From sequence record OK018184: DNA of 64,000 nt; one strand, 5' to 3'. The stretch's first letter is position 1. Each line of letters starts with the position of its first letter. The position numbers were made by a program, and so were the translations under genes. This document shows positions 19,375-64,000 of this stretch, in pieces. The notes under the pieces were generated by a model. That model worked only from the letters and a program-made list of their open reading frames with translations. It ran no database searches and was not told where the DNA came from. This stretch comes from Shigella phage CT01.

Positions 19375-19559
19375 TAATCTAATGGTAAGAGAGTACGATA
19401 TATTTCAAACTTTGGCCCTTTTTCATAGGCATCAAATGTTTCTGTAAATTTATTATAAGCATATGCATCTACAAATTCGAGAATGACTTGTGATACAGAA
19501 GTAGAAACATCTCCACCTTCTTTTTGAGCTATAACAATTGTTTCTAAGTAAGCTTTCAT
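19371..19559 (-). CDS. hypothetical small protein
   Basis: 62-aa ORF overlapping the ligase stop. Confidence 0.5.
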   Translation of the reverse strand: MKAYLETIVIAQKEGGDVSTSVSQVILEFVDAYAYNKFTETFDAYEKGPKFEIYRTLLPLDY

Positions 19560-21016
19560 AGACCAGTTACCTCATGAAAATCACCAAATACATCCTCGAA
19601 TGTATTAGCTTTAGTTTTATCTTCACGTAAACGAATCGCAATCGGAAGAAATAATTTAACGTAATCAGTGCGGCCATCAGATTTTAACCAACCGTTGCAT
19701 TCGCACTCTAGAATTTTTCCAATATAATAATTTTGGTTTTCCATAATGCGAGTACGGTCAAGTTCATGTGATTTTACACCAGCTTTATCTTTTAAACCTG
19801 AACCAGCATTTACCTTAATTTTTCCACACTCTGATTCAAGAATAAATCCACCTGCTTTAGTAGGGTCTTTACGGTGAGGATAAATTCCTACAATTTTTAA
19901 ATCAACATCAATTACTTCTTTAAATTTATAGAGATTTTTTGAACGAGCATTTTCCCACAATCCATCGGTATTTTTGAGAATAATACCTTCAAGACCTCGG
20001 TCAATATATTTTTTATAAATTACCTTAGCTTCATCTAGGTTATTTACTACCTGGTTTTCAATTAAAATTACTTTATCATATCCTGATGTCATTTGTTCTA
20101 GTTTAGAAAAACGTACATCATATTTTAAACGAAACGCCGGAAGACCGTATATTTCTACCAACGGGACATAATCCCAGACCTGAAACTTCATACATTTGGC
20201 TTCTTTTTCTGAAATAGTTCCCTTTAAAGATTTATTGGCGATTCCATTAGAAGCAGTACGAGATTCAGCTACTTCAGCAAACTCTTTAACTTTACTATTT
20301 TCAGGAGAGTCAAAAAGAAAATCTAGGCCTTCTGGCTCCTTTTCAACTTGCTCATGGTATACCAATTCGCCATCAATTAACACACCTTCTGGATGAATCT
20401 GGCGGGCTTCAGCAGTCATTTTGATTAGATCTTCCTTAAGAAGATCTAATCCTAGATATTCATTACCAGCTCGCGATAAAAGACGAACATCATCTAATTC
20501 ATCGCCTCGGACTTCAGCAAAACACCGAGCTCCATCTGCTTTTAACTGCGCAAAAGCTGGAAACTTGATATTCTTACTAATGCCTTTTTCATCATAAGAA
20601 CTTGCCAGCATTTGAGGTTGTTCAGGAATTAAACCTGGCCAAACTTTGTTTGCAATAGATACTGAAGCACCACATTCAAGGTCTCGCATCATAACTCGAC
20701 GCAAAACTTCAACATCATCCTTTTTACCATCGGTGATATATCCAGTTAATTCCTCAATTGCTGCATTGCCAGTTAATTTCCGAGTAGCTAACGTGAATTC
20801 AATGAAGTCAAGCATATCGGTAATAGTCAGCATTCCAAAACTCTGGGTAGCAATACCAGGTTTAGGCCATTTCTTGATATAATACTGTAACCCACGAGAA
20901 TAAGTCAGACGATATACTCGTTTAAGCAATTCATTATCTTTATTCTTTTCAAGAATTGCTTGCTTCTGCTTAGTTGAACCAATAGATGCTATTTCATTTA
21001 GAATTTCAAGAATCAT
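19556..21016 (-). CDS. 30: ATP-dependent DNA ligase gp30
   Basis: 486 aa; adenylation lysine motif in QLKADGARCF; matches recalled T4 DNA ligase. Confidence 0.9.
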   Translation of the reverse strand: MILEILNEIASIGSTKQKQAILEKNKDNELLKRVYRLTYSRGLQYYIKKWPKPGIATQSFGMLTITDMLDFIEFTLATRKLTGNAAIEELTGYITDGKKDDVEVLRRVMMRDLECGASVSIANKVWPGLIPEQPQMLASSYDEKGISKNIKFPAFAQLKADGARCFAEVRGDELDDVRLLSRAGNEYLGLDLLKEDLIKMTAEARQIHPEGVLIDGELVYHEQVEKEPEGLDFLFDSPENSKVKEFAEVAESRTASNGIANKSLKGTISEKEAKCMKFQVWDYVPLVEIYGLPAFRLKYDVRFSKLEQMTSGYDKVILIENQVVNNLDEAKVIYKKYIDRGLEGIILKNTDGLWENARSKNLYKFKEVIDVDLKIVGIYPHRKDPTKAGGFILESECGKIKVNAGSGLKDKAGVKSHELDRTRIMENQNYYIGKILECECNGWLKSDGRTDYVKLFLPIAIRLREDKTKANTFEDVFGDFHEVTGL

Positions 21017-21282
21017 TGCTCATCCTTCAAGGTTTGGTTTACAGCTCTATTATAAATCAATTCATCATTAAGCTCAGGCAAAGACTTATGATATGTAGTT
21101 CTAACTTTATTTCCTTGCATCCAGTGCTTGACGTAAATGAAACCTTGCTCTACACATTTTTTAAAAATTCGTTCATCCTTTTGAGCACGGAACTCTGGAT
21201 TACATCTAAAAAATTGATTTACGTGACCGTAATCACGTGTAGTATTACCTTCATTTTCATAAATAGTATGAACAACAAACAT
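21013..21282 (-). CDS. hypothetical protein at the 30.1 position
   Basis: 89-aa ORF, ATGA-coupled. Confidence 0.55.
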   Translation of the reverse strand: MFVVHTIYENEGNTTRDYGHVNQFFRCNPEFRAQKDERIFKKCVEQGFIYVKHWMQGNKVRTTYHKSLPELNDELIYNRAVNQTLKDEQ

Positions 21283-22214
21283 TAGAATGCTCCTTGAAAA
21301 ATATTATCACCACTAGTAGGTCTATTATACAAATACTCTATGCCACCAGGTTTAATATAGTTCCATGTCTGAAACGGATGTGTCTGATATGGATGATATA
21401 GATGATTATTAGGTCTATTATACAAATACTCTATGCCACCAGGTTTAATATAGTTCCATGTCTGAAACGGATGTGTCTGATATGGATGATATAGATGATT
21501 ATAAGGATTTAATCCAGGCGTTCTCCAGGTAGTGTTCCAAGGAAAAGAATCGTTTTTAACCATCTTCTCAATTAAATCTTTTATAGCTTTTTCACTATCA
21601 AAACTTTCTTTATTTTCCTTCGGCGAAAAAAGCTTATTTTCTACATCATTCCATGTATAAACTCGCTGCGCAGTTTTTGGAATATTGTCACGCTCTCCTC
21701 GAGCCATCCAATAAACAGGAACATTTAATATTTCACTCGCATGATCGCAGTGATGAGCGAGATCGTCAATATAACAAATTACGTTATATTTCTCTTTTGC
21801 CTTTTTGAACAGCTCTTCTTTTGAAGAATCATGACCACACATCATTACTTCCGAGAAAGCACCAGGAAAAAGAGCATTCAAATTAAATTGACGATTCAAC
21901 AGAGCGTCAATAGAATCACCCAATGCTGTAACAGCTACAAAATTATAATCTTCTTTTAATTTGTTAATTACACACAGGGCATCTTTATACGGAGACAAGT
22001 AACGAATAAAATCTGAACGATTGTATTTTTCAATTAACTTGACGCCAAGTTCTTCGTCACAATTAAAGAGTTTACCCGGAGAAATAAATTTCTCATCTTG
22101 GATCATTTTTAAAATATGTTCTAATGGAAGATTATATTTCTGAGCAAAATAAGGAAGGCCTGATTGCCAGCTTAAACATACTCCATCAATATCAGTTAAA
22201 ATAGTTGGCTTCAT
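21282..22214 (-). CDS. HAD-like hydrolase-family protein (30.2 position) with in-frame 31-aa C-terminal duplication
   Basis: N-terminal DIDGV (DxDG) HAD motif; C-terminus repeats NHLYHPYQTHPFQTWNYIKPGGIEYLYNRP twice. Confidence 0.6.
   Translation of the reverse strand: MKPTILTDIDGVCLSWQSGLPYFAQKYNLPLEHILKMIQDEKFISPGKLFNCDEELGVKLIEKYNRSDFIRYLSPYKDALCVINKLKEDYNFVAVTALGDSIDALLNRQFNLNALFPGAFSEVMMCGHDSSKEELFKKAKEKYNVICYIDDLAHHCDHASEILNVPVYWMARGERDNIPKTAQRVYTWNDVENKLFSPKENKESFDSEKAIKDLIEKMVKNDSFPWNTTWRTPGLNPYNHLYHPYQTHPFQTWNYIKPGGIEYLYNRPNNHLYHPYQTHPFQTWNYIKPGGIEYLYNRPTSGDNIFQGAF
21317..21502. repeat. perfect 93-bp tandem duplication (2 copies) inside the 30.2 ORF
   Basis: 21317-21409 is identical to 21410-21502. 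Confidence 0.9.
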
Positions 22215-22675
22215 AGAGAGTCTCTTAATAGGTTTAACACATCAATAAATTCAGCTTCGGTTAGTATTGTATCATCTTTTGTTAGACCACTAGCCATGCT
22301 GTGCTTCAAAACTTTTCCTTTCGAGGCTTGTAATGCATCACGAAAGCCCCTGTTTTGGATTGCTGCTTCAAAATATGCATTTGTGTATAATTCTTTCCAT
22401 GCTGGAGAGTATCTTGAAAATGGAACTCCAAGCCAAAAGAGGGTCCCACGGTCCTGAGCTCTAGCATAAGACCTTCCAGCTTGTTGGGCGGCAAGCCCGG
22501 ACATCCCAAATATACGTCTTTGCTGTTCAACATTTTTCACCTTACATCCTTGGAGGAATCCTTCGAGACCTCCAAATTGGATACCATCCATAACGAAAGG
22601 CCATTGAGCGAAATTGCTTAATGCACATGATGGCCATCTAAAATTGCTTCTTATCTCTAGCTCAGACATTTTCAA
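22211..22675 (-). CDS. hypothetical protein at the 30.3 position
   Basis: 154-aa ORF. Confidence 0.55.
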   Translation of the reverse strand: MKMSELEIRSNFRWPSCALSNFAQWPFVMDGIQFGGLEGFLQGCKVKNVEQQRRIFGMSGLAAQQAGRSYARAQDRGTLFWLGVPFSRYSPAWKELYTNAYFEAAIQNRGFRDALQASKGKVLKHSMASGLTKDDTILTEAEFIDVLNLLRDSL

Positions 22676-22868
22676 TACTTATAATTTCAACATCAGCCCA
22701 ATGACCATAGCAAGGAAGACGAAATTCAACTGGCCAGTTAGGGTCCTTTTCTAATATAATAGACTTAACTTGTGGTTCTTCATGTTCATCGGTATACGGA
22801 CCTTTATATGTTACTTTATATGTGACCTTAATGTACTGAATTCCAAAAATCTTATTAATTATATTCAT
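22662..22868 (-). CDS. hypothetical small protein
   Basis: 68-aa ORF in the tightly packed minus-strand array. Confidence 0.45.
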   Translation of the reverse strand: MNIINKIFGIQYIKVTYKVTYKGPYTDEHEEPQVKSIILEKDPNWPVEFRLPCYGHWADVEIISIENV

Positions 22869-26910: not shown

Positions 26911-27143
26911 AGTACGCCATACACCCTTTGTGCTTCAACTAATCCATCAAAATCCAGTTTAAGATGTGTTATTTGGTCACCATCACCTGGATTCACAATT
27001 ACTAATACTGAACGAGGAGTTTCGGTAATAACACGAACCGACGTTTCAGGAAATCGTTCAGAAACCTTATTTACCAATTCTTGAGCAAATAGTTTAACTT
27101 TTTCTTGGAATTCTTTAACAGTAATTGGTTTTTCGCTTAGCAT
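26907..27143 (-). CDS. hypothetical protein
   Basis: 78-aa ORF. Confidence 0.45.
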   Translation of the reverse strand: MLSEKPITVKEFQEKVKLFAQELVNKVSERFPETSVRVITETPRSVLVIVNPGDGDQITHLKLDFDGLVEAQRVYGVL

Positions 27144-27664
27144 GTTGATCCTAGCTCCTTACTTTCAACGTTTTTAACTAATTTGACAGAAACTAATTCA
27201 GCATCTTGGGTAATCATTACCGGGCCTTCTTCATACTCTTCAAGATATTCTAGAGCTTTCTTTTTAGCTTCTTCCTTCGTATCAGTTTGAGCATAGATAT
27301 AAAACATACAACCAGTAATACCTACTACTTTCCACTTAATTTCTTTATCAGTTTTAATTTCAAATTTACTGATAGAGTCATCTTTTTGAACTTCTTCGAA
27401 AAAATAATATTCTGACATATAAGTAATTGAAAATAGCGGGCTATCTTTATAAGATTCGCCCATTACATCAACAGCTTTATACCAGCAATCGTCAATTTCG
27501 CGTTTAATGCTAATAACATTTTTCGCAGGATCTATTTTTACTTTAAATGAATTTTCCCCAATAAACTGAGCAATTCGTTTATTAGCCCCGCAAGTTTCAT
27601 TAAAAATATCTTTATATCCAGCTTTAAAGCGATAAACCTTATCTTCTTCAAACCATTCGCTCAT
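27137..27664 (-). CDS. hypothetical protein
   Basis: 175-aa ORF. Confidence 0.5.
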   Translation of the reverse strand: MSEWFEEDKVYRFKAGYKDIFNETCGANKRIAQFIGENSFKVKIDPAKNVISIKREIDDCWYKAVDVMGESYKDSPLFSITYMSEYYFFEEVQKDDSISKFEIKTDKEIKWKVVGITGCMFYIYAQTDTKEEAKKKALEYLEEYEEGPVMITQDAELVSVKLVKNVESKELGSTC

Positions 27665-34729: not shown

Positions 34730-34877
34730 ATCTTGATAGTCTAACAGGTTATCAAGTGCACGTACTTGAACTTCTGCTAATTCATTAATTTTATCTTGGT
34801 CTTGCCAATCGAAGTTATCCAACACAAATGCAGATAACGTGCACAATCCAATTTCAGCATCAGGACTATTCACATCA
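34730..34877. repeat. 148-bp direct repeat of nrdA sequence, left copy flanking the insert
   Basis: Identical to 35737-35884; encodes DVNSPDAEIGLCTLSAFVLDNFDWQDQDKINELAEVQVRALDNLLDYQD. Confidence 0.9.
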
Positions 34878-35736
34878 GTTCGACGCGTTGTTCTTGAAGA
34901 CGGATCACATACTTGGACTGCTAAACAAGATTTTAATGGCGCAGTTAACTTTAACTCTACTGTTAACCTTAATAACACTACCACATTTAAAACAGAAGTT
35001 AAATTCCGCTCGTTGAATGCATTCCGTATGTATGGCGGAAAATTTGGTACATTTTTACGTAATGATGGAGAGAGTCTTTATATTCTTTCCACCGACGAAG
35101 ATGATCAAGATGGAAACTTTAATACAAATAGACCTTTCCGTTATGAATTAAGAACTGGTGATGTTACTTTGGGTGGTGTTAGTGGTGCTAACGTTTTAAA
35201 ATTAAAACGTGATTCTCTCACCGCATTTTTTGGCGGTGATATTAACATGAAAGGCACGATGACTTTTGACGCCGGACGTTTAGGGTCACGAGATTATTTT
35301 AAATTTAACCATTGGGGTGATAGCAATAACGCTCGTGATAACATCATCCAGTTAGAAGATAGTCAAGGCGCTCATTTTTCCACTGAACGTACTTTAGCGA
35401 CTGGTGCAATTAAAACTCGTTTCTTTGGCGAAACATTCACTGATGGTACATTATACCTAAATCAGATGAATAATAGCTCTGAACGATTCCATATCAATAA
35501 TTGGGGAAATTCAGAAGTTGGTCGCGCGGCAGTGATGGAAGTCGGTGATTCCAAAGGTTATCACTTCTATACGGAACGCAGGACAGATAACAGTTTGACA
35601 TTTGATGTTGCTGGCACTTTTACCGTGCATGGACCTACCGGGATCACTATCAAAAACTCTGTTGGTGCTCGCCACATCTGGTTTAAAGATGATAGCGATG
35701 CAGAAAAGGCTGACAGTTTAATTACCTTCCGCAGTG
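34878..35736 (+). other. inserted segment derived from long tail fibre gene 37 (835 bp of gene 37 sequence plus 24-bp filler)
   Basis: 34876-35712 matches the gene 37 copy at 52582-53074 and also contains the 344 bp absent from that copy; 35713-35736 has no match in the window. Confidence 0.85.
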
Positions 35737-35884
35737 ATCTTGATAGTCTAACAGGTTATCAAGTGCACGTACTTGAACTTCTGCTAATTCATTAATTTTA
35801 TCTTGGTCTTGCCAATCGAAGTTATCCAACACAAATGCAGATAACGTGCACAATCCAATTTCAGCATCAGGACTATTCACATCA
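35737..35884. repeat. 148-bp direct repeat of nrdA sequence, right copy
   Basis: Identical to 34730-34877. Confidence 0.9.
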
Positions 35885-41472: not shown

Positions 41473-42381
41473 TTAAAGGTCATTCAAAAGGTCATCCAGA
41501 TCCGTGTCATCAGCACTAGATGAACTGCCAGAGCTTGAGCTCATAAAATCATCTTCAGTTTTTGTTTTGAAGTCATCAACATTGAATGCATCCAAATCAT
41601 CAGCAACTTTATCAGCTTTCTTAGCGGCAGTTGCTGCGGCACCGCCCATAGCAGCAGTTCCCATAACTTGACTGAACTTAGTGCTCAGTTCTTCAAACGA
41701 TTTGAATTTATCTTTAGAAGTCATTTCAGAAAGGTCAACCATTTGTTCGAACAGTTCTTTCTGGAAAGATTCATCATCAATGTTTGGAATCGCAGATTGA
41801 TTCAGGAATTTAGATTCATCGTAGTTACTAAAACCAGAAACTTGTTTAACTTTCAGTACAAAGTTAGCACCTTCCCACGGACAAGTTACATCAACCGGAG
41901 TTTCACCCATTTCAACATCAACTGCAATCATTGCATTGATTTTATCCCAGATTTTCTTACCAAAACGGTATTTAAATACTTTACCTTCATTTTCTGGAGC
42001 AGCTGGGTCTTTTACTACAAGAATGTTAGCCCAGTAAGAAGTTTTACGTTTAACAAGACCGTACTCTTTATTGTCAGTGTTATACAAATCATTTTTACTG
42101 ATGTACTGACATACTGGACAAGAATCGTAATCACCGTGGGTAGATGAACAGTTTTCAATATACCATTTACCATTTTTCTTGAAACCGTGATTTACAAGAA
42201 TTGCGAATGGTGCTTGTTCATCATTTTTAGACGGAAGAAAACGAATTACTGCTTGACCGTTACCCGCATTATCGAGTTTCAGTTTCCACTCGCCTTTATC
42301 TTCAGAAGAAAAACTACCTTTATTTCCAGCCAGTTTAGCCATTTGTGCAGCGAGTTCAGCAGTAGATTTACGTTTAAACAT
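41473..42381 (-). CDS. 32: single-stranded DNA-binding protein gp32
   Basis: 302 aa; [17 protein letters not shown]..., acidic C-terminus [12 protein letters not shown]; matches recalled T4 gp32. Confidence 0.9.
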
Positions 42382-42628
42382 TTTTATTTCCTTTTTAATT
42401 TAATTAACAGTTGGTGCTATGACGATGTATGACCTCATAGCTGGTCAGTGAGATAATTATAATCTATTTATAATAAGCAATTAATACTTACAAGATTTCA
42501 CAGTTTCAATGAAAACACTTTTGGCTTTCTGTGAATCAATATTTAAAATTTTTCTATAAGCCTTTAACTTTATAGAATAATTATTCCAGACTAAATTATC
42601 AGTCTGTTCATCATGTTTATCAATTATA
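42091..42628. repeat. 538-bp direct repeat, copy 1 (gene 32 5' end, its leader, and the gene 59 3' end)
   Basis: Identical to 42692-43229 (offset 601 bp). Confidence 0.9.
42481..42628 (-). pseudogene. duplicated 3' fragment of gene 59 (last 48 codons)
   Basis: Encodes [48 protein letters not shown], identical to the gp59 C-terminus. Confidence 0.7.
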
Positions 42629-42691
42629 ATTCGAACTGATCTGTGTTTGTGCATTTGGGCATATGTTTGCGCGCGTAAAGCAGGCTGGTCG
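42629..42691. other. 63-bp unique spacer between the two 538-bp repeat copies
   Basis: No match found elsewhere in the window by eye. Confidence 0.6.
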
Positions 42692-42982
42692 ATTTTTACT
42701 GATGTACTGACATACTGGACAAGAATCGTAATCACCGTGGGTAGATGAACAGTTTTCAATATACCATTTACCATTTTTCTTGAAACCGTGATTTACAAGA
42801 ATTGCGAATGGTGCTTGTTCATCATTTTTAGACGGAAGAAAACGAATTACTGCTTGACCGTTACCCGCATTATCGAGTTTCAGTTTCCACTCGCCTTTAT
42901 CTTCAGAAGAAAAACTACCTTTATTTCCAGCCAGTTTAGCCATTTGTGCAGCGAGTTCAGCAGTAGATTTACGTTTAAACAT
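42692..42982 (-). pseudogene. duplicated 5' fragment of gene 32 (first 97 codons) fused to junction sequence
   Basis: Track ORF 42620..42982 begins with the gp32 N-terminus and then diverges into spacer-encoded residues. Confidence 0.7.
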
Positions 42983-43229
42983 TTTTATTTCCTTTTTAAT
43001 TTAATTAACAGTTGGTGCTATGACGATGTATGACCTCATAGCTGGTCAGTGAGATAATTATAATCTATTTATAATAAGCAATTAATACTTACAAGATTTC
43101 ACAGTTTCAATGAAAACACTTTTGGCTTTCTGTGAATCAATATTTAAAATTTTTCTATAAGCCTTTAACTTTATAGAATAATTATTCCAGACTAAATTAT
43201 CAGTCTGTTCATCATGTTTATCAATTATA
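42692..43229. repeat. 538-bp direct repeat, copy 2
   Basis: Identical to 42091-42628. Confidence 0.9.
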
Positions 43230-50403: not shown

Positions 50404-51096
50404 ATGGCTGATTTAAAAGTAGGTTCAACTGTGGGTGGATCTGTCATTTGGCATCAAGGAAATTTTCCATTGAATTCAGCCGGTGACGATGTACTCTACA
50501 AATCATTTAAAATATATTCAGAATATAATAAACCGCAGGCAGCTGATAACGATTTCGTTTCTAAAGCTAATGGTGGTACTTACACCGGTCCAATTACTAT
50601 TAATTACGGGGTAAATAGTTATCTTCAATTAAGTAATAATGAAACCCCTATCCGAATTCGTTCTGGTGGCGGCACCGGTAATACTCTTGTAATTGGTGGA
50701 TCTTCTGGTGGTATTAGTTTTAGACCTGCAGGTAGTGAAATCACTACTGGACAAATTAGTTTTAGACCTGCAGGTAGTGAAATCACTACTGGACAAATTA
50801 CTATTACGCCAGAAGGTTTGACAACATTCACCAAAGCTGTAAAGGCTCCATCTGTAACTGTTACATCTACTCCTTCCGCAGCATCAGATGCTACTCGTAA
50901 AGATTATGTTGATGGAGCAATAAATACTGTTACAGCAAATGCAAACTCTAGAGTGTTACGATCTGGTGACACCATGACAGGAAATTTAACTGCGCCAAAC
51001 CTTTTTTCACAGAATCCTGCATCTCAACCTTCACACGTTCCACGATTTGACCAAATCGTAATTAAGGATTCTGTTCAAGATTTCGGCTATTATTAA
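50404..51096 (+). CDS. 36: long tail fibre distal connector gp36 (with internal 14-aa tandem duplication)
   Basis: 230 aa; N- and C-terminal regions match recalled T4 gp36; [14 protein letters not shown] occurs twice. Confidence 0.8.
50713..50796. repeat. perfect 42-bp tandem duplication (2 copies) inside gene 36
   Basis: attagttttagacctgcaggtagtgaaatcactactggacaa repeated back to back. Confidence 0.9.
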
Positions 51097-51104
51097 GAGG
51101 ACTT

Positions 51105-53835
51105 ATGGCTACTTTAAAACAAATACAATTTAAAAGAAGCAAAACCGCAGGTCAACTTCCTGCTGCTTCAGTATTAGCCGAAGGTGAATTGGCTATTAAT
51201 TTAAAAGATAAAACAATTTTCACAAAAGATGACTCAGGCAATGTTATAGAATTAGGTTTAAAATATGGAGGAACAATTGATGGTTCTTTAACTGTTAATG
51301 GAAATATAATTGGAAATTTAACAGGTAACGCTGCAACTGCAACGAAATTAAAAACAGCACGAAAAATTAATGGTATATCCTTTGATGGGTCAAAAGATAT
51401 CACGCTAACTCCATCCGACATAAATGTCAATAGCACAACGTTTATAAAAAATAACGGCGAATTACCTGTTGATGCTAATTTAGATACGTATGGGCCTGTT
51501 GAAGAATATCTTGGAGTTTGGTCGAAAGCAACTTCAACCAACGCTCAACCAGCAAATAAATTTCCAGAAAACAATGCTGTAGGTGTGCTAGAAGTATTTG
51601 TGGCCGGTCAATTTGCTGGTACTCAGAGATATACAACTAGATACGGAAATGTTTATATTCGTTCCTTGACTGCTACATGGAACGGAGTAAATGGTCCGTG
51701 GAGTGTGTGGCGAAATATTCAATCCGGTACTCGTTCACTGTCAACAACAATTGATCTTAATGATCTAGGAGGTGCTGAACATCTTGGTTTGTGGCGAAAT
51801 AGTTCAAATTCCATTGCTACCTTTGACAGAAATTTCCCAGAAGAGGGGTCGTCAGCTCAAGGTCTTTTGGAAGTATATGAAGGTGGAAACTATTCTCGTA
51901 CACAAAGATATACAACCAGATTTGGTGTTGTTTATACTCGCTGTCTTACTGCTGCGTGGGATGCTTCTGCGCCTAAATGGGGACCGTGGCAACAAGTCGG
52001 TAATGTCACACCGGCGACTTTCTATGACGGAAACCTGAATGATTTTAAAACTCCTGGGTTATATAATATTTTAGGCACTGATGCCGTTATTAATTGTCCT
52101 ACAGGCGAAGGTTTACCAGCCGTTATTGTTGGTTTGCTGGAAGTTAAACAGCGTGCTTCTGGCGGTGCTATTTTCCAAAAATTTACTACTGCCGGAACAG
52201 GTGCAACTACCCGCGATCGTATTTTTGAGCGCGCATATACCGGCGGTGTGTGGGGTGAATGGAACGAAGTATACACATCTTATTCTCTACCAATTACTTT
52301 GGGTATGGGCGGTATTAAATCTAACTTAGCAGAGTTAGACTGGCAAGCATTTGATTTTGTTCCTGGTAGTATGTTTAGCGTTCCTTTGAACAAAATAAAG
52401 AACATGCCAGCTAATATGGATTGGGGTACGATTGACGGAAACTTAATTATGTTTTCTGTTGGTCCTAGCGAGCACACCAGCACAGGACGTACTGTTCAGG
52501 TTTGGCGTGGAACTGTATCCCAGACAAACTATCGTTATTTTGTCGTTCGTGTATTCGGTAATCCAGGGAGTAGAACATGTACAGTTCGACGCGTTGTTCT
52601 TGAAGACGGATCACATACTTGGACTGCTAAACAAGATTTTAATGGCGCAGTTAACTTTAACTCTACTGTTAACCTTAATAACACTACCACATTTAAAACA
52701 GAAGTTAAATTCCGCTCGTTGAATGCAAGGCGCTCATTTTTCCACTGAACGTACTTTAGCGACTGGTGCAATTAAAACTCGTTTCTTTGGCGAAACATTC
52801 ACTGATGGTACATTATACCTAAATCAGATGAATAATAGCTCTGAACGATTCCATATCAATAATTGGGGAAATTCAGAAGTTGGTCGCGCGGCAGTGATGG
52901 AAGTCGGTGATTCCAAAGGTTATCACTTCTATACGGAACGCAGGACAGATAACAGTTTGACATTTGATGTTGCTGGCACTTTTACCGTGCATGGACCTAC
53001 CGGGATCACTATCAAAAACTCTGTTGGTGCTCGCCACATCTGGTTTAAAGATGATAGCGATGCAGAAAAGGCTGTTATCTGGGCTACAGATGAGGGTATT
53101 TTACATATTCGCAATAATCATGAGGGTTCATTTAGTCATCACTTCCAGGGTGCAATGATTAAACTGGAAGGGCGTGTTCCTTATGGTGCAGCAAAAGGGC
53201 TTATTCGAGGCGAGATAGACGGTGGTGCATATGTTGCATGGAGAGACCGCCCTGCTGGTTTGTTGGTTGACTGCCAGAAAAGTATTGACAGTGCTCATGC
53301 TGTTTGGAAAGCGGTTGATTGGGGGCGTCAATATATCGCTGCTATGGACGTTCATTGTCCGGGTGATGGTAATAATACTGCGGCAGCGGTTCTTCATGTT
53401 CAGGCTGCTGATTATCAATTCCATGCAAGCGGAGAATTTCATGCCACTGGTAACGGGAACTTTAACGATGTGTATATTCGTTCCGATGGTCGTCTGAAAA
53501 TTAATGTTGAAGATTATACAGGAAATGCGTTAAGTTTGATCGGCAAACTGAAAGTGAAAACTTACGATAAAGTTAAATCTCTTAAAGACCGTGAAATTAT
53601 CGGTCACGAGATCGGCATTATCGCACAGGATTTACAAGAAATATTACCGGAAGCTGTAAAATCTTCAAAGGTTGGCAATCTTGATAATCCAGACGATGTT
53701 CTGACAATTTCTAACTCTGCTGTGAATGCTCTTTTAATTAAGGCTATTCAGGAAATGAGTAAAGAAATTAAAGAATTGAAAACTCCTTTCTTTACTAAAA
53801 TTGCTCGCAAAATTAGTAAATATTTTAAATTCTAA
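51105..53835 (+). pseudogene. 37: long tail fibre distal subunit gene 37, broken by a 344-bp frameshifting deletion at 52727/52728
   Basis: Two overlapping ORFs in different frames (51105..52748 and 52723..53835); the missing 344 bp is present in the copy inside nrdA at 35022-35365. Confidence 0.8.
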
Positions 53836-61820: not shown

Positions 61821-62378
61821 TTAAATGGAAAGATACCATCCGTTGTAGTTGCTTTTTCTTACAACCTTACGAAGGTCTTCTCTATCACCGACGAACTTCG
61901 GAGTGTACTGGATGACACCTGGATGAATTTCTTTAGTGTTGAATATAATTATACAGTCAGCGACTTGATGATTCAGAATGGGCCCTAGATTTATTCCAGA
62001 ACCGTATGGATACTCTCCGCTGCATCCGGTTGTTACAGAAATCCAACGTGAGTCAGTTTGGTGTGTCTTAACTTCTACGCGAATCCCGCAGTATCTTGGA
62101 TGCGCCAATACATCCCATGCGTATGTATACGGGTCATTAACATCCTCTTGGCCTTTGTTAACATACCCGCTTAGCCAATCTGCTACAAAAAACTCTGCGT
62201 ACACCGCGATACGGCATCTTTCGATAACTTCTGCTTTATCCTGATTTGGATTTTGTTTTAAAGAGTATCTTGCTGTATCAGCAATTTTGACCTTCATTTC
62301 ACTAGTCAAGTCACTGTTCGATAGGGTAAATGTCGGAATCTGAAATAGTCTCTGTAAACCCGGATTCGTTTTCTGCAT
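61821..62378 (-). CDS. denB: endonuclease IV (DenB)-like protein
   Basis: 185 aa, T4 denB length and position between ndd and rIIB; identity by synteny and length only. Confidence 0.6.
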   Translation of the reverse strand: MQKTNPGLQRLFQIPTFTLSNSDLTSEMKVKIADTARYSLKQNPNQDKAEVIERCRIAVYAEFFVADWLSGYVNKGQEDVNDPYTYAWDVLAHPRYCGIRVEVKTHQTDSRWISVTTGCSGEYPYGSGINLGPILNHQVADCIIIFNTKEIHPGVIQYTPKFVGDREDLRKVVRKSNYNGWYLSI

Positions 62379-62719
62379 TAAACTTTCCTTTTACGTCGGA
62401 ATCACTGATATTCATACAATAAATCATAACTTCCCTTAAAACAAAAGGGCCGAAGCCCCTTATTTTATTTGAATTGTGCAATTCTTTTCTCTATCTTGCT
62501 GTATCAGCAATTTTGACCTTCATTTCACTAGTCAAGTCACTGTTCGATAGGGTAAATGTCGGAATCTGAAATAGTCTCTGTAAACCCGGATTCGTTTTCT
62601 GCATTAAACTTTCCTTTTACGTCGGAATCACTGATATTCATACAATAAATCATAACTTCCCTTAAAACAAAAGGGCCGAAGCCCCTTATTTTATTTGAAT
62701 TGTGCAATTCTTTTCTCTA
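62266..62719. repeat. perfect 226-bp tandem duplication (2 copies) spanning the denB 5' end, its upstream region with terminator, and the 3' end of the 64-aa gene
   Basis: 62266-62491 is identical to 62492-62717; boundaries ambiguous by 2 bp. Confidence 0.9.
62446..62468 (-). terminator. hairpin gggc-cgaa-gccc plus T-run; further copies at 62672-62694 and 62903-62925
   Basis: aaaagggccgaagccccttattttatttgaattg occurs three times. Confidence 0.5.
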
Positions 62720-63858: not shown

Positions 63859-64000
63859 AATTTTCCTTATTAGGCCGCAAGGGCCTTCATAGTTTTAGCG
63901 ATTTGGGAAACTTCATCATCACTTAAAGAATTGGGGTTGTATGTTTTATATCTATGCTCAAACTGATACGAAGGAAGAAGCTAAAAAGAAAGCTCTAGAA

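Follow-up and report, generated by a model that had tools for sequence, protein, structure and literature searches.

In phage T4, gene 30.2 lies between 30.1 and 30.3, downstream of the ligase gene 30, and is 837 bp long with a product of 278 aa (NP_049815). The cellular enzymes with which this product may be compared are the 5'(3')-deoxyribonucleotidases, such as human and mouse cdN/mdN (2jao, 2i7d, 4yih and 1q92) and the enzyme of S. epidermidis (3bwv). These share with the predicted fold of 30.2 a Rossmannoid HAD core that bears a cap, helical in those enzymes, and with its sequence the DxDG motif I, and some depositors annotate 30.2 homologues under that name. The cellular enzymes, however, lack the disordered Tyr/His/Pro-rich tail described below.

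Direct head-to-tail duplications of T-even genomes are classically known in T4, for example in the rII region; as a rule they span kilobases, are unstable and have been selected genetically. Draft genomes, on the other hand, may contain copies of another kind. When overlaps are left unmerged or contigs are mis-scaffolded, one record alone shows adjacent copies that match base for base and vary in length. Misplaced fragments, filler at the joins and essential genes broken in two accompany them, and cut-and-paste resolves all of these. The subject of the present analysis is a 93-bp perfect tandem repeat in gene 30.2 of Shigella phage CT01, which resembles such draft-assembly overlaps more than the selected T4 duplications and is probably not a real feature. 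The window, i.e., the whole stretch of DNA analysed, comprises 64,000 nucleotides of the record OK018184.1, and its features are collected in Table 1.

Table 1. Features of gene 30.2, its surroundings and the anomalous sites of the window (window coordinates)
Feature	Position	Strand	Basis and remarks
Gene 30.2 homologue, 310 aa	21282..22214	-	PHROG 420, E 5e-93; exact protein is UDY80593.1, Shigella phage CT01
DNA ligase gp30	19556-21016		Neighbour of 30.2
30.1, DUF3045	21013-21282		Neighbour of 30.2; Pfam E 6e-63
30.3, Phage_30_3	22211-22675	-	Directly upstream of 30.2; E 4e-70
Predicted HAD-fold catalytic domain, residues 1 to ~195	21630..22214	-	AF2 pLDDT >90, Foldseek, motif conservation
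Predicted disordered hypervariable C-terminal tail, residues 225-310	21285..21542	-	pLDDT <50 for most; holds the whole duplication
93-bp unit, first in coding order	21410..21502	-	Last 2 nt of Tyr238 codon, residues 239-268, first nt of junction Asn269 codon
93-bp unit, second in coding order	21317..21409	-	Last 2 nt of Asn269 codon, residues 270-299, first nt of Thr300 codon
Tail motif copy 1, GIEYLYNRP(N), residues 260-269	21408..21437	-	Motif recurrence and alignment
Tail motif copy 2, GIEYLYNRPT, residues 291-300	21315..21344	-	Motif recurrence and alignment
Mis-join: nrdA broken by an 837-bp internal gene 37 piece (34876-35712) and 24 bp of filler	34730..35884	.	A 148-bp stretch of nrdA, exactly duplicated, lies on either side
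538-bp exact duplication: gene 59 3' end, intergenic, gene 32 5' end (290 nt)	42091..43229	-	Copies parted by 63-bp filler
42 bp x 2.1 perfect tandem duplication that keeps the frame of gene 36 (230-aa ORF)	50713..50800	+	TRF; private
Gene 37 locus without its 342-bp middle piece, junction 52726/52727	52582..53074	+	gp37 split into 547-aa and 370-aa ORFs
226 bp x 2 perfect tandem duplication, denB 5' end and upstream	62266..62719	-	TRF; private
Private breakpoint, rIIA 3' end	63934..64000	.	Followed by an exact copy of 27248-27313 in inverted orientation, which reaches the window end

Gene 30.2 and its HAD-type core

The gene had been taken for a 30.2 homologue, and both the PHROG 420 match and the gene order, 30 - 30.1 - 30.2 - 30.3 as in T4, confirm that it belongs to the gp30.2 orthologue group. 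PHROG 420 itself is annotated as of unknown function, and no papers were found in a literature search for 'gp30.2'. The CT01 protein carries the same tail allele as T4 gp30.2, NHLYHPYQTHPFQTWNYIKPGG(I/V)EYLYNRPT, but differs from it by 31 extra residues that are found in no other record. The adjacent gene 30.3 is listed in UniProt as 'Anti-DarT factor NADAR' (NADAR_BPT4); 30.2 thus adjoins a known counter-defence gene.

An AlphaFold2 model of the 310-aa protein was built on 70 homologues. It is confident (pLDDT >90) from residue 1 to about 190, and a further confident helix is found at 207-220. Among these 70 homologues, D8 and D10 of HAD motif I (D8-I-D10-G-V), K132 of motif III and D150/D151 of motif IV are invariant, while T96 of motif II is nearly so. 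The HAD-like N-terminus with a DxDG motif that had been proposed earlier is thereby recovered as D8-x-D10-G11 in a HAD-type N-terminal domain.

Foldseek found 120 PDB entries that match at E <= 0.001; the 50 of them that are listed are without exception HAD-fold proteins (probability 1.0, E about 1e-8). The matches of lowest rmsd are cdN/mdN and 3bwv, at 4.2-5.3 Å, with 14-19% identity and a target-normalised TM of 0.63-0.70, and other HAD subfamilies equal them by Foldseek E-value. The family profile, when run against the PDB, matched mouse cdN (2jao) weakly, at E 0.11. The protein has no Pfam match at E <= 0.1, NT5C included, and no NCBIfam match at E <= 1; it is therefore not placed by profile among the 5'(3')-deoxyribonucleotidases (Pfam NT5C), from which it differs in this respect as well. 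Because of the lack of such matches, the assignment of function rests on the fold and the motifs. The N-terminal domain of 30.2 is predicted by the model to have the HAD fold, with all four HAD motifs conserved, and 'deoxyribonucleotidase-like' is a reasonable working label for it, as a statement of likeness and not of membership in that sequence family.

The 93-bp repeat and the tail that carries it

The two units of the repeat are 100% identical, base for base, as the original prediction had it. TRF reports a period of 93, 2.0 copies and a score of 373, along with an internal 15-bp x 2 repeat. The period is broken at bases 21316 and 21503, so that the perfect repeat is exactly 186 bp long, and a reading of the flanking bases gives 0 bp of microhomology at the junction. 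An exact tandem repeat of this length cannot have arisen by chance in 64 kb. At the protein level, the 30-residue string NHLYHPYQTHPFQTWNYIKPGGIEYLYNRP begins at residue 239 and again at residue 270, and a new Asn codon is created where the units meet (CCT A/AT AAT, the slash marking the junction). The duplication was also rightly described as being in frame, as adding 31 residues to the ORF and as lying in a Tyr/His/Pro-rich C-terminal tail; the last 10 residues of the C-terminus are kept. No regulatory signal specific to the 93-bp unit was found when 20900-22800 was scanned for sigma-70 promoters and terminators. Ten promoter-like sites were observed against 7.6 +/- 3.1 expected, with 0 terminators, and a regulatory element within the repeat was therefore rejected.

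The comparison of homologues in other T-even phages, which had been suggested as a check, settles on one unit as the norm. The main 90% cluster, with its 279-aa representative, has 1,386 member sequences. The best 60 of 648 DNA matches each span 831-846 bp of the 933-bp query, i.e., a single copy, and a 419-bp query is spanned over 323-332 bp by all the tail-covering records in a spread sample of 45 out of 499. Two diverged copies were seen in none of the phage records inspected, and on the sequences compared, a single unit is the normal state of T-even 30.2. Using a 101-bp query centred on the junction, no contiguous match across it was found in 50,697 phage records, only two-piece matches; the junction 30-mer was likewise not found in IMG/VR, in one-per-species GTDB genomes or in JGI metagenomes. 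Thus, in none of the four collections searched does the junction occur in an independent isolate, and the exact 310-aa protein is present on one contig only, that of CT01 (OK018184.1). The closest single-copy relative, Escherichia phage DCP2, differs from the window over the gene and its 300-bp flanks (1.4 kb) by the 93-bp insertion and 1 SNP only. A chimeric assembly of mixed phages was also considered; the nearest relative does not clearly change from one side of the 30.2 junction to the other.

The tail in which the repeat lies is variable throughout the family. Homologues range from 196 to 347 aa, and the region after W188, mostly unalignable, measures 6 to 156 residues; 47 of the 100 homologue clusters are shorter than 255 aa and have little or no tail. 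Even in close relatives, the 30.2 protein may have 278, 279, 284 or 287 aa. The motif G(I/V)EY(L/W)xNxPT occurs in 15 of the 100 clusters, in several host genera, and is always placed within about 10 residues of the C-terminus. In the form GIEYLxNxPT, it is the sole tail motif common to different genera and lies inside the duplicated unit; two copies of it in one homologue were found in none of the 100 clusters. At least two tail alleles exist in Tequatrovirus, the other of which has a degenerate motif, GDAGYFNRFT. Shigella phage SF2-1 is the closest genome overall (99.7% identity over 20 kb), yet it has a different 30.2 tail allele. Its gene (L001 6283-7146, compared with window positions 21282-21560) carries the other allele with a 24-bp tandem repeat of its own, giving NPYYTHPY twice. 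Compared at this level, the tail is a mosaic and an indel hot spot among otherwise near-identical phages. It is predicted to be a disordered, indel-prone segment, whose one recurrent motif is held by the 93-bp unit. The role in interaction or oligomerisation that had first been suggested for it would be a putative one; the segment is predicted to lack order, but it does contain this motif, which different genera share.

Further private duplications and mis-joins in the record

TRF was run over the whole window, and a detector of exact tandem repeats (period 20-1000, at least two perfect copies) was applied to the window as well as to DCP2 (167.7 kb) and LF73P3 (166.6 kb); KNP1, which has runs of N, was left out of this baseline. 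Three perfect tandem duplications were found in the 64 kb of the window, against 0 in each of the two relatives, which total 334 kb.

Apart from the one in 30.2, these are the duplications in gene 36 and at denB. In gene 36, relatives span 659 bp against 701, i.e., they have one copy, and this includes EcNP1, which is 100% identical. A 14-residue protein string occurs twice as a result of this duplication. Codons 1-38 of denB, the region upstream of that gene and the final 27 nt of an ORF for a 7.5-kDa product make up the 226-bp unit, and all the genes keep an intact copy; relatives show two architectures of the denB-rIIB region, with a single copy in each (W143, ime09). A 36-nt hairpin-like element (AAGGGCCGAAGCCCCTTATTTTATTT...) is present in this neighbourhood at 62445, 62671 and 62900. 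The microhomology at the junctions is 4 bp for the 42-bp duplication and 2 bp for the 226-bp one. Microhomology-mediated slippage was considered, and the values of 0, 4 and 2 bp do not discriminate.

A fourth, non-adjacent duplication affects genes 59 and 32. The 538-bp region is present in one copy in LF73P3. The filler between its two copies in the window (42629-42691) is relatively GC-rich, and no counterpart of it was found among E. coli genomes or phages, nor in the local flanks or the rest of the window. The 226-bp and 538(+63)-bp duplications extend across gene starts and therefore leave one intact copy per gene.

A further anomaly concerns nrdA and gene 37. By self-comparison, the insert in nrdA (859 bp) holds two exact copies of adjacent gene 37 stretches, and the gene 37 locus is split precisely where these stretches abut. 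When 34876-35712 is moved back into gene 37, an open gp37 of 1024 aa is obtained, of which 962/1030 positions are identical to a full-length relative; on cutting the insert from nrdA, an intact NrdA of 754 aa results. The product of gene 37 is the distal long tail fibre, without which T-even phages do not adsorb. As a phage lacking an intact gene 37 would not plate, the arrangement is to be read as a mis-join and not as biology. On this sequence evidence, it is a demonstrable and clear mis-join in the deposited record, and such an arrangement cannot be biological. The broken ORFs were deposited as such (UDY80622.1, UDY80623.1, UDY80635.1, UDY80642.1, UDY80643.1 and UDY80644.1), and the window thus reflects the deposit faithfully.

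Towards the end of the window, rIIA is broken, and none of the 497 matching phage records continues across 63933/63934. Outside the junctions, the sequence has 99.85% identity to SF2-1 with 1 gap over 9 kb. A low-quality platform, with homopolymer or indel noise, was rejected on this ground, and since the sequence is clean outside the junctions, the errors of the record are structural and not base-level. A 519-bp stretch (27143-27662) is shared by the window and SF2-1 and is missing from DCP2, where its flanks are contiguous; it is probably a small accessory insertion.

Origin of the repeat and its meaning for the gp30.2 family

From the state of the record, we infer, with a probability of roughly 70%, that the 93-bp repeat is an untrimmed contig-overlap artefact and not a property of the phage; the identity of the gene, its fold and the disorder of its tail come from the analysis directly. 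Two adjacent contigs, or reads, that overlap by 93 bp would have been concatenated without merging, leaving two perfect copies back to back. The record as a whole would then approximate to contigs of 2-13 kb, ordered and concatenated with their overlapping ends unmerged, with one small contig misplaced and some untrimmed junk left at the joins. Every such join would leave a base-perfect duplication of arbitrary length, as is seen at about seven places in the 64 kb. The copies in 30.2 are base-identical and, as far as the collections go, private to CT01, and the same signature recurs at other joins, impossible ones included (42, 226, 538 and 148 bp; gene 37/nrdA; rIIA). The repeat would accordingly be one member of a cluster of private exact anomalies, for which the baseline in the two relatives is zero, and at least one anomaly of this cluster, gene 37 in nrdA, is beyond any biological reading. 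Identical copies with no microhomology at their junction are also what an unmerged overlap would give. For the same reason, the original prediction that zero divergence implies a very recent event loses its support, as such identity is equally expected of an unmerged contig overlap, and the window contains five or more other private sites, either 100%-identical duplications or breakpoints. With the repeat read as an overlap, 30.2 in CT01 is an ordinary single-unit gene, orthologous to T4 30.2 and encoding an uncharacterised protein of the HAD fold.

Some observations do not sit easily with an assembly origin. The two duplications that lie wholly inside ORFs (93 and 42 bp) are both multiples of three, a coincidence with a chance of about 1/9 if they were pure artefact, and in-frame lengths are to be expected had a viable phage been selected; this, a mild misfit with the pattern of draft-genome overlaps, is the main objection. 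The overlap lengths are heterogeneous (46, 93, 148, 228 and 538 bp), so that no single k-mer overlap fits, and a repeat or other cause for a break in the assembly at the 30.2 site was looked for and none was found. The tails of other phages grow by small tandem duplications, which makes a real event mechanistically plausible. It could be proposed that the repeat is a genuine, very recent in-frame duplication in the disordered tail, produced by replication slippage or illegitimate recombination, nearly neutral under selection and present in the CT01 isolate or in part of its lysate population. The preservation of the C-terminal 10 residues, the in-frame duplication in gene 36, itself essential, the tolerance of the tail for indels (the varied lengths in close relatives and the small repeats in other alleles) and the classical tandem duplications of T4 all speak for this proposal. 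It nevertheless has to account for a singleton among all the records and collections searched, for a host record with a demonstrable mis-join and several private exact duplications, for the absence of perfect tandem duplications from the two related genomes and for a junction without microhomology. It is therefore regarded as unlikely, though with a real chance of being right. That the duplication is real in CT01 and, by doubling GIEYLxNxPT in the tail of a HAD nucleotidase-like enzyme, makes a natural valency variant is doubtful.

An adaptive role goes further, with the doubled motif raising the valency of binding and recruiting the phosphatase more strongly to a putative partner. The presence in the unit of the only cross-genus tail motif, with its constant place near the C-terminus, is in keeping with such a role. 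But the motif is never doubled in any homologue and is degenerate in the other Tequatrovirus allele, and about half of the homologue clusters have little or no tail; all the evidence for an artefact counts here too, and the idea is highly improbable.

If the repeat is an artefact, the practical value of the finding is the curation of OK018184.1. This record appears to be mis-assembled at several places, with gene 37 and nrdA split, gene 32 partly duplicated and rIIA broken, and the duplications in gene 36, gene 30.2 and the denB region appear to be spurious if the artefact reading holds. In that case, UDY80593.1, UDY80622.1 and UDY80643.1 would be unfit as evidence of natural variation. In comparative work (PMC13602300), the record has already been taken for a 'closest relative'; this is the single mention of CT01 that a literature search found, and it gives the accession and no assembly method.

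If the duplication is real, it would be a minor polymorphism of length, probably neutral, and the protein affected is an accessory, non-essential one. The 31 added residues would be far from the catalytic core and GIEYLYNRP would be shown twice, the likeliest effect being none, or else an altered avidity for a hypothetical partner. Were a valency variant to prove true, it would provide a handle for finding the binding partner of the tail and the role of gene 30.2. For the family as a whole, the gp30.2 proteins join a conserved HAD core to a tail that is hypervariable, predicted to be disordered and closed by a recurrent motif, an architecture of modest interest.
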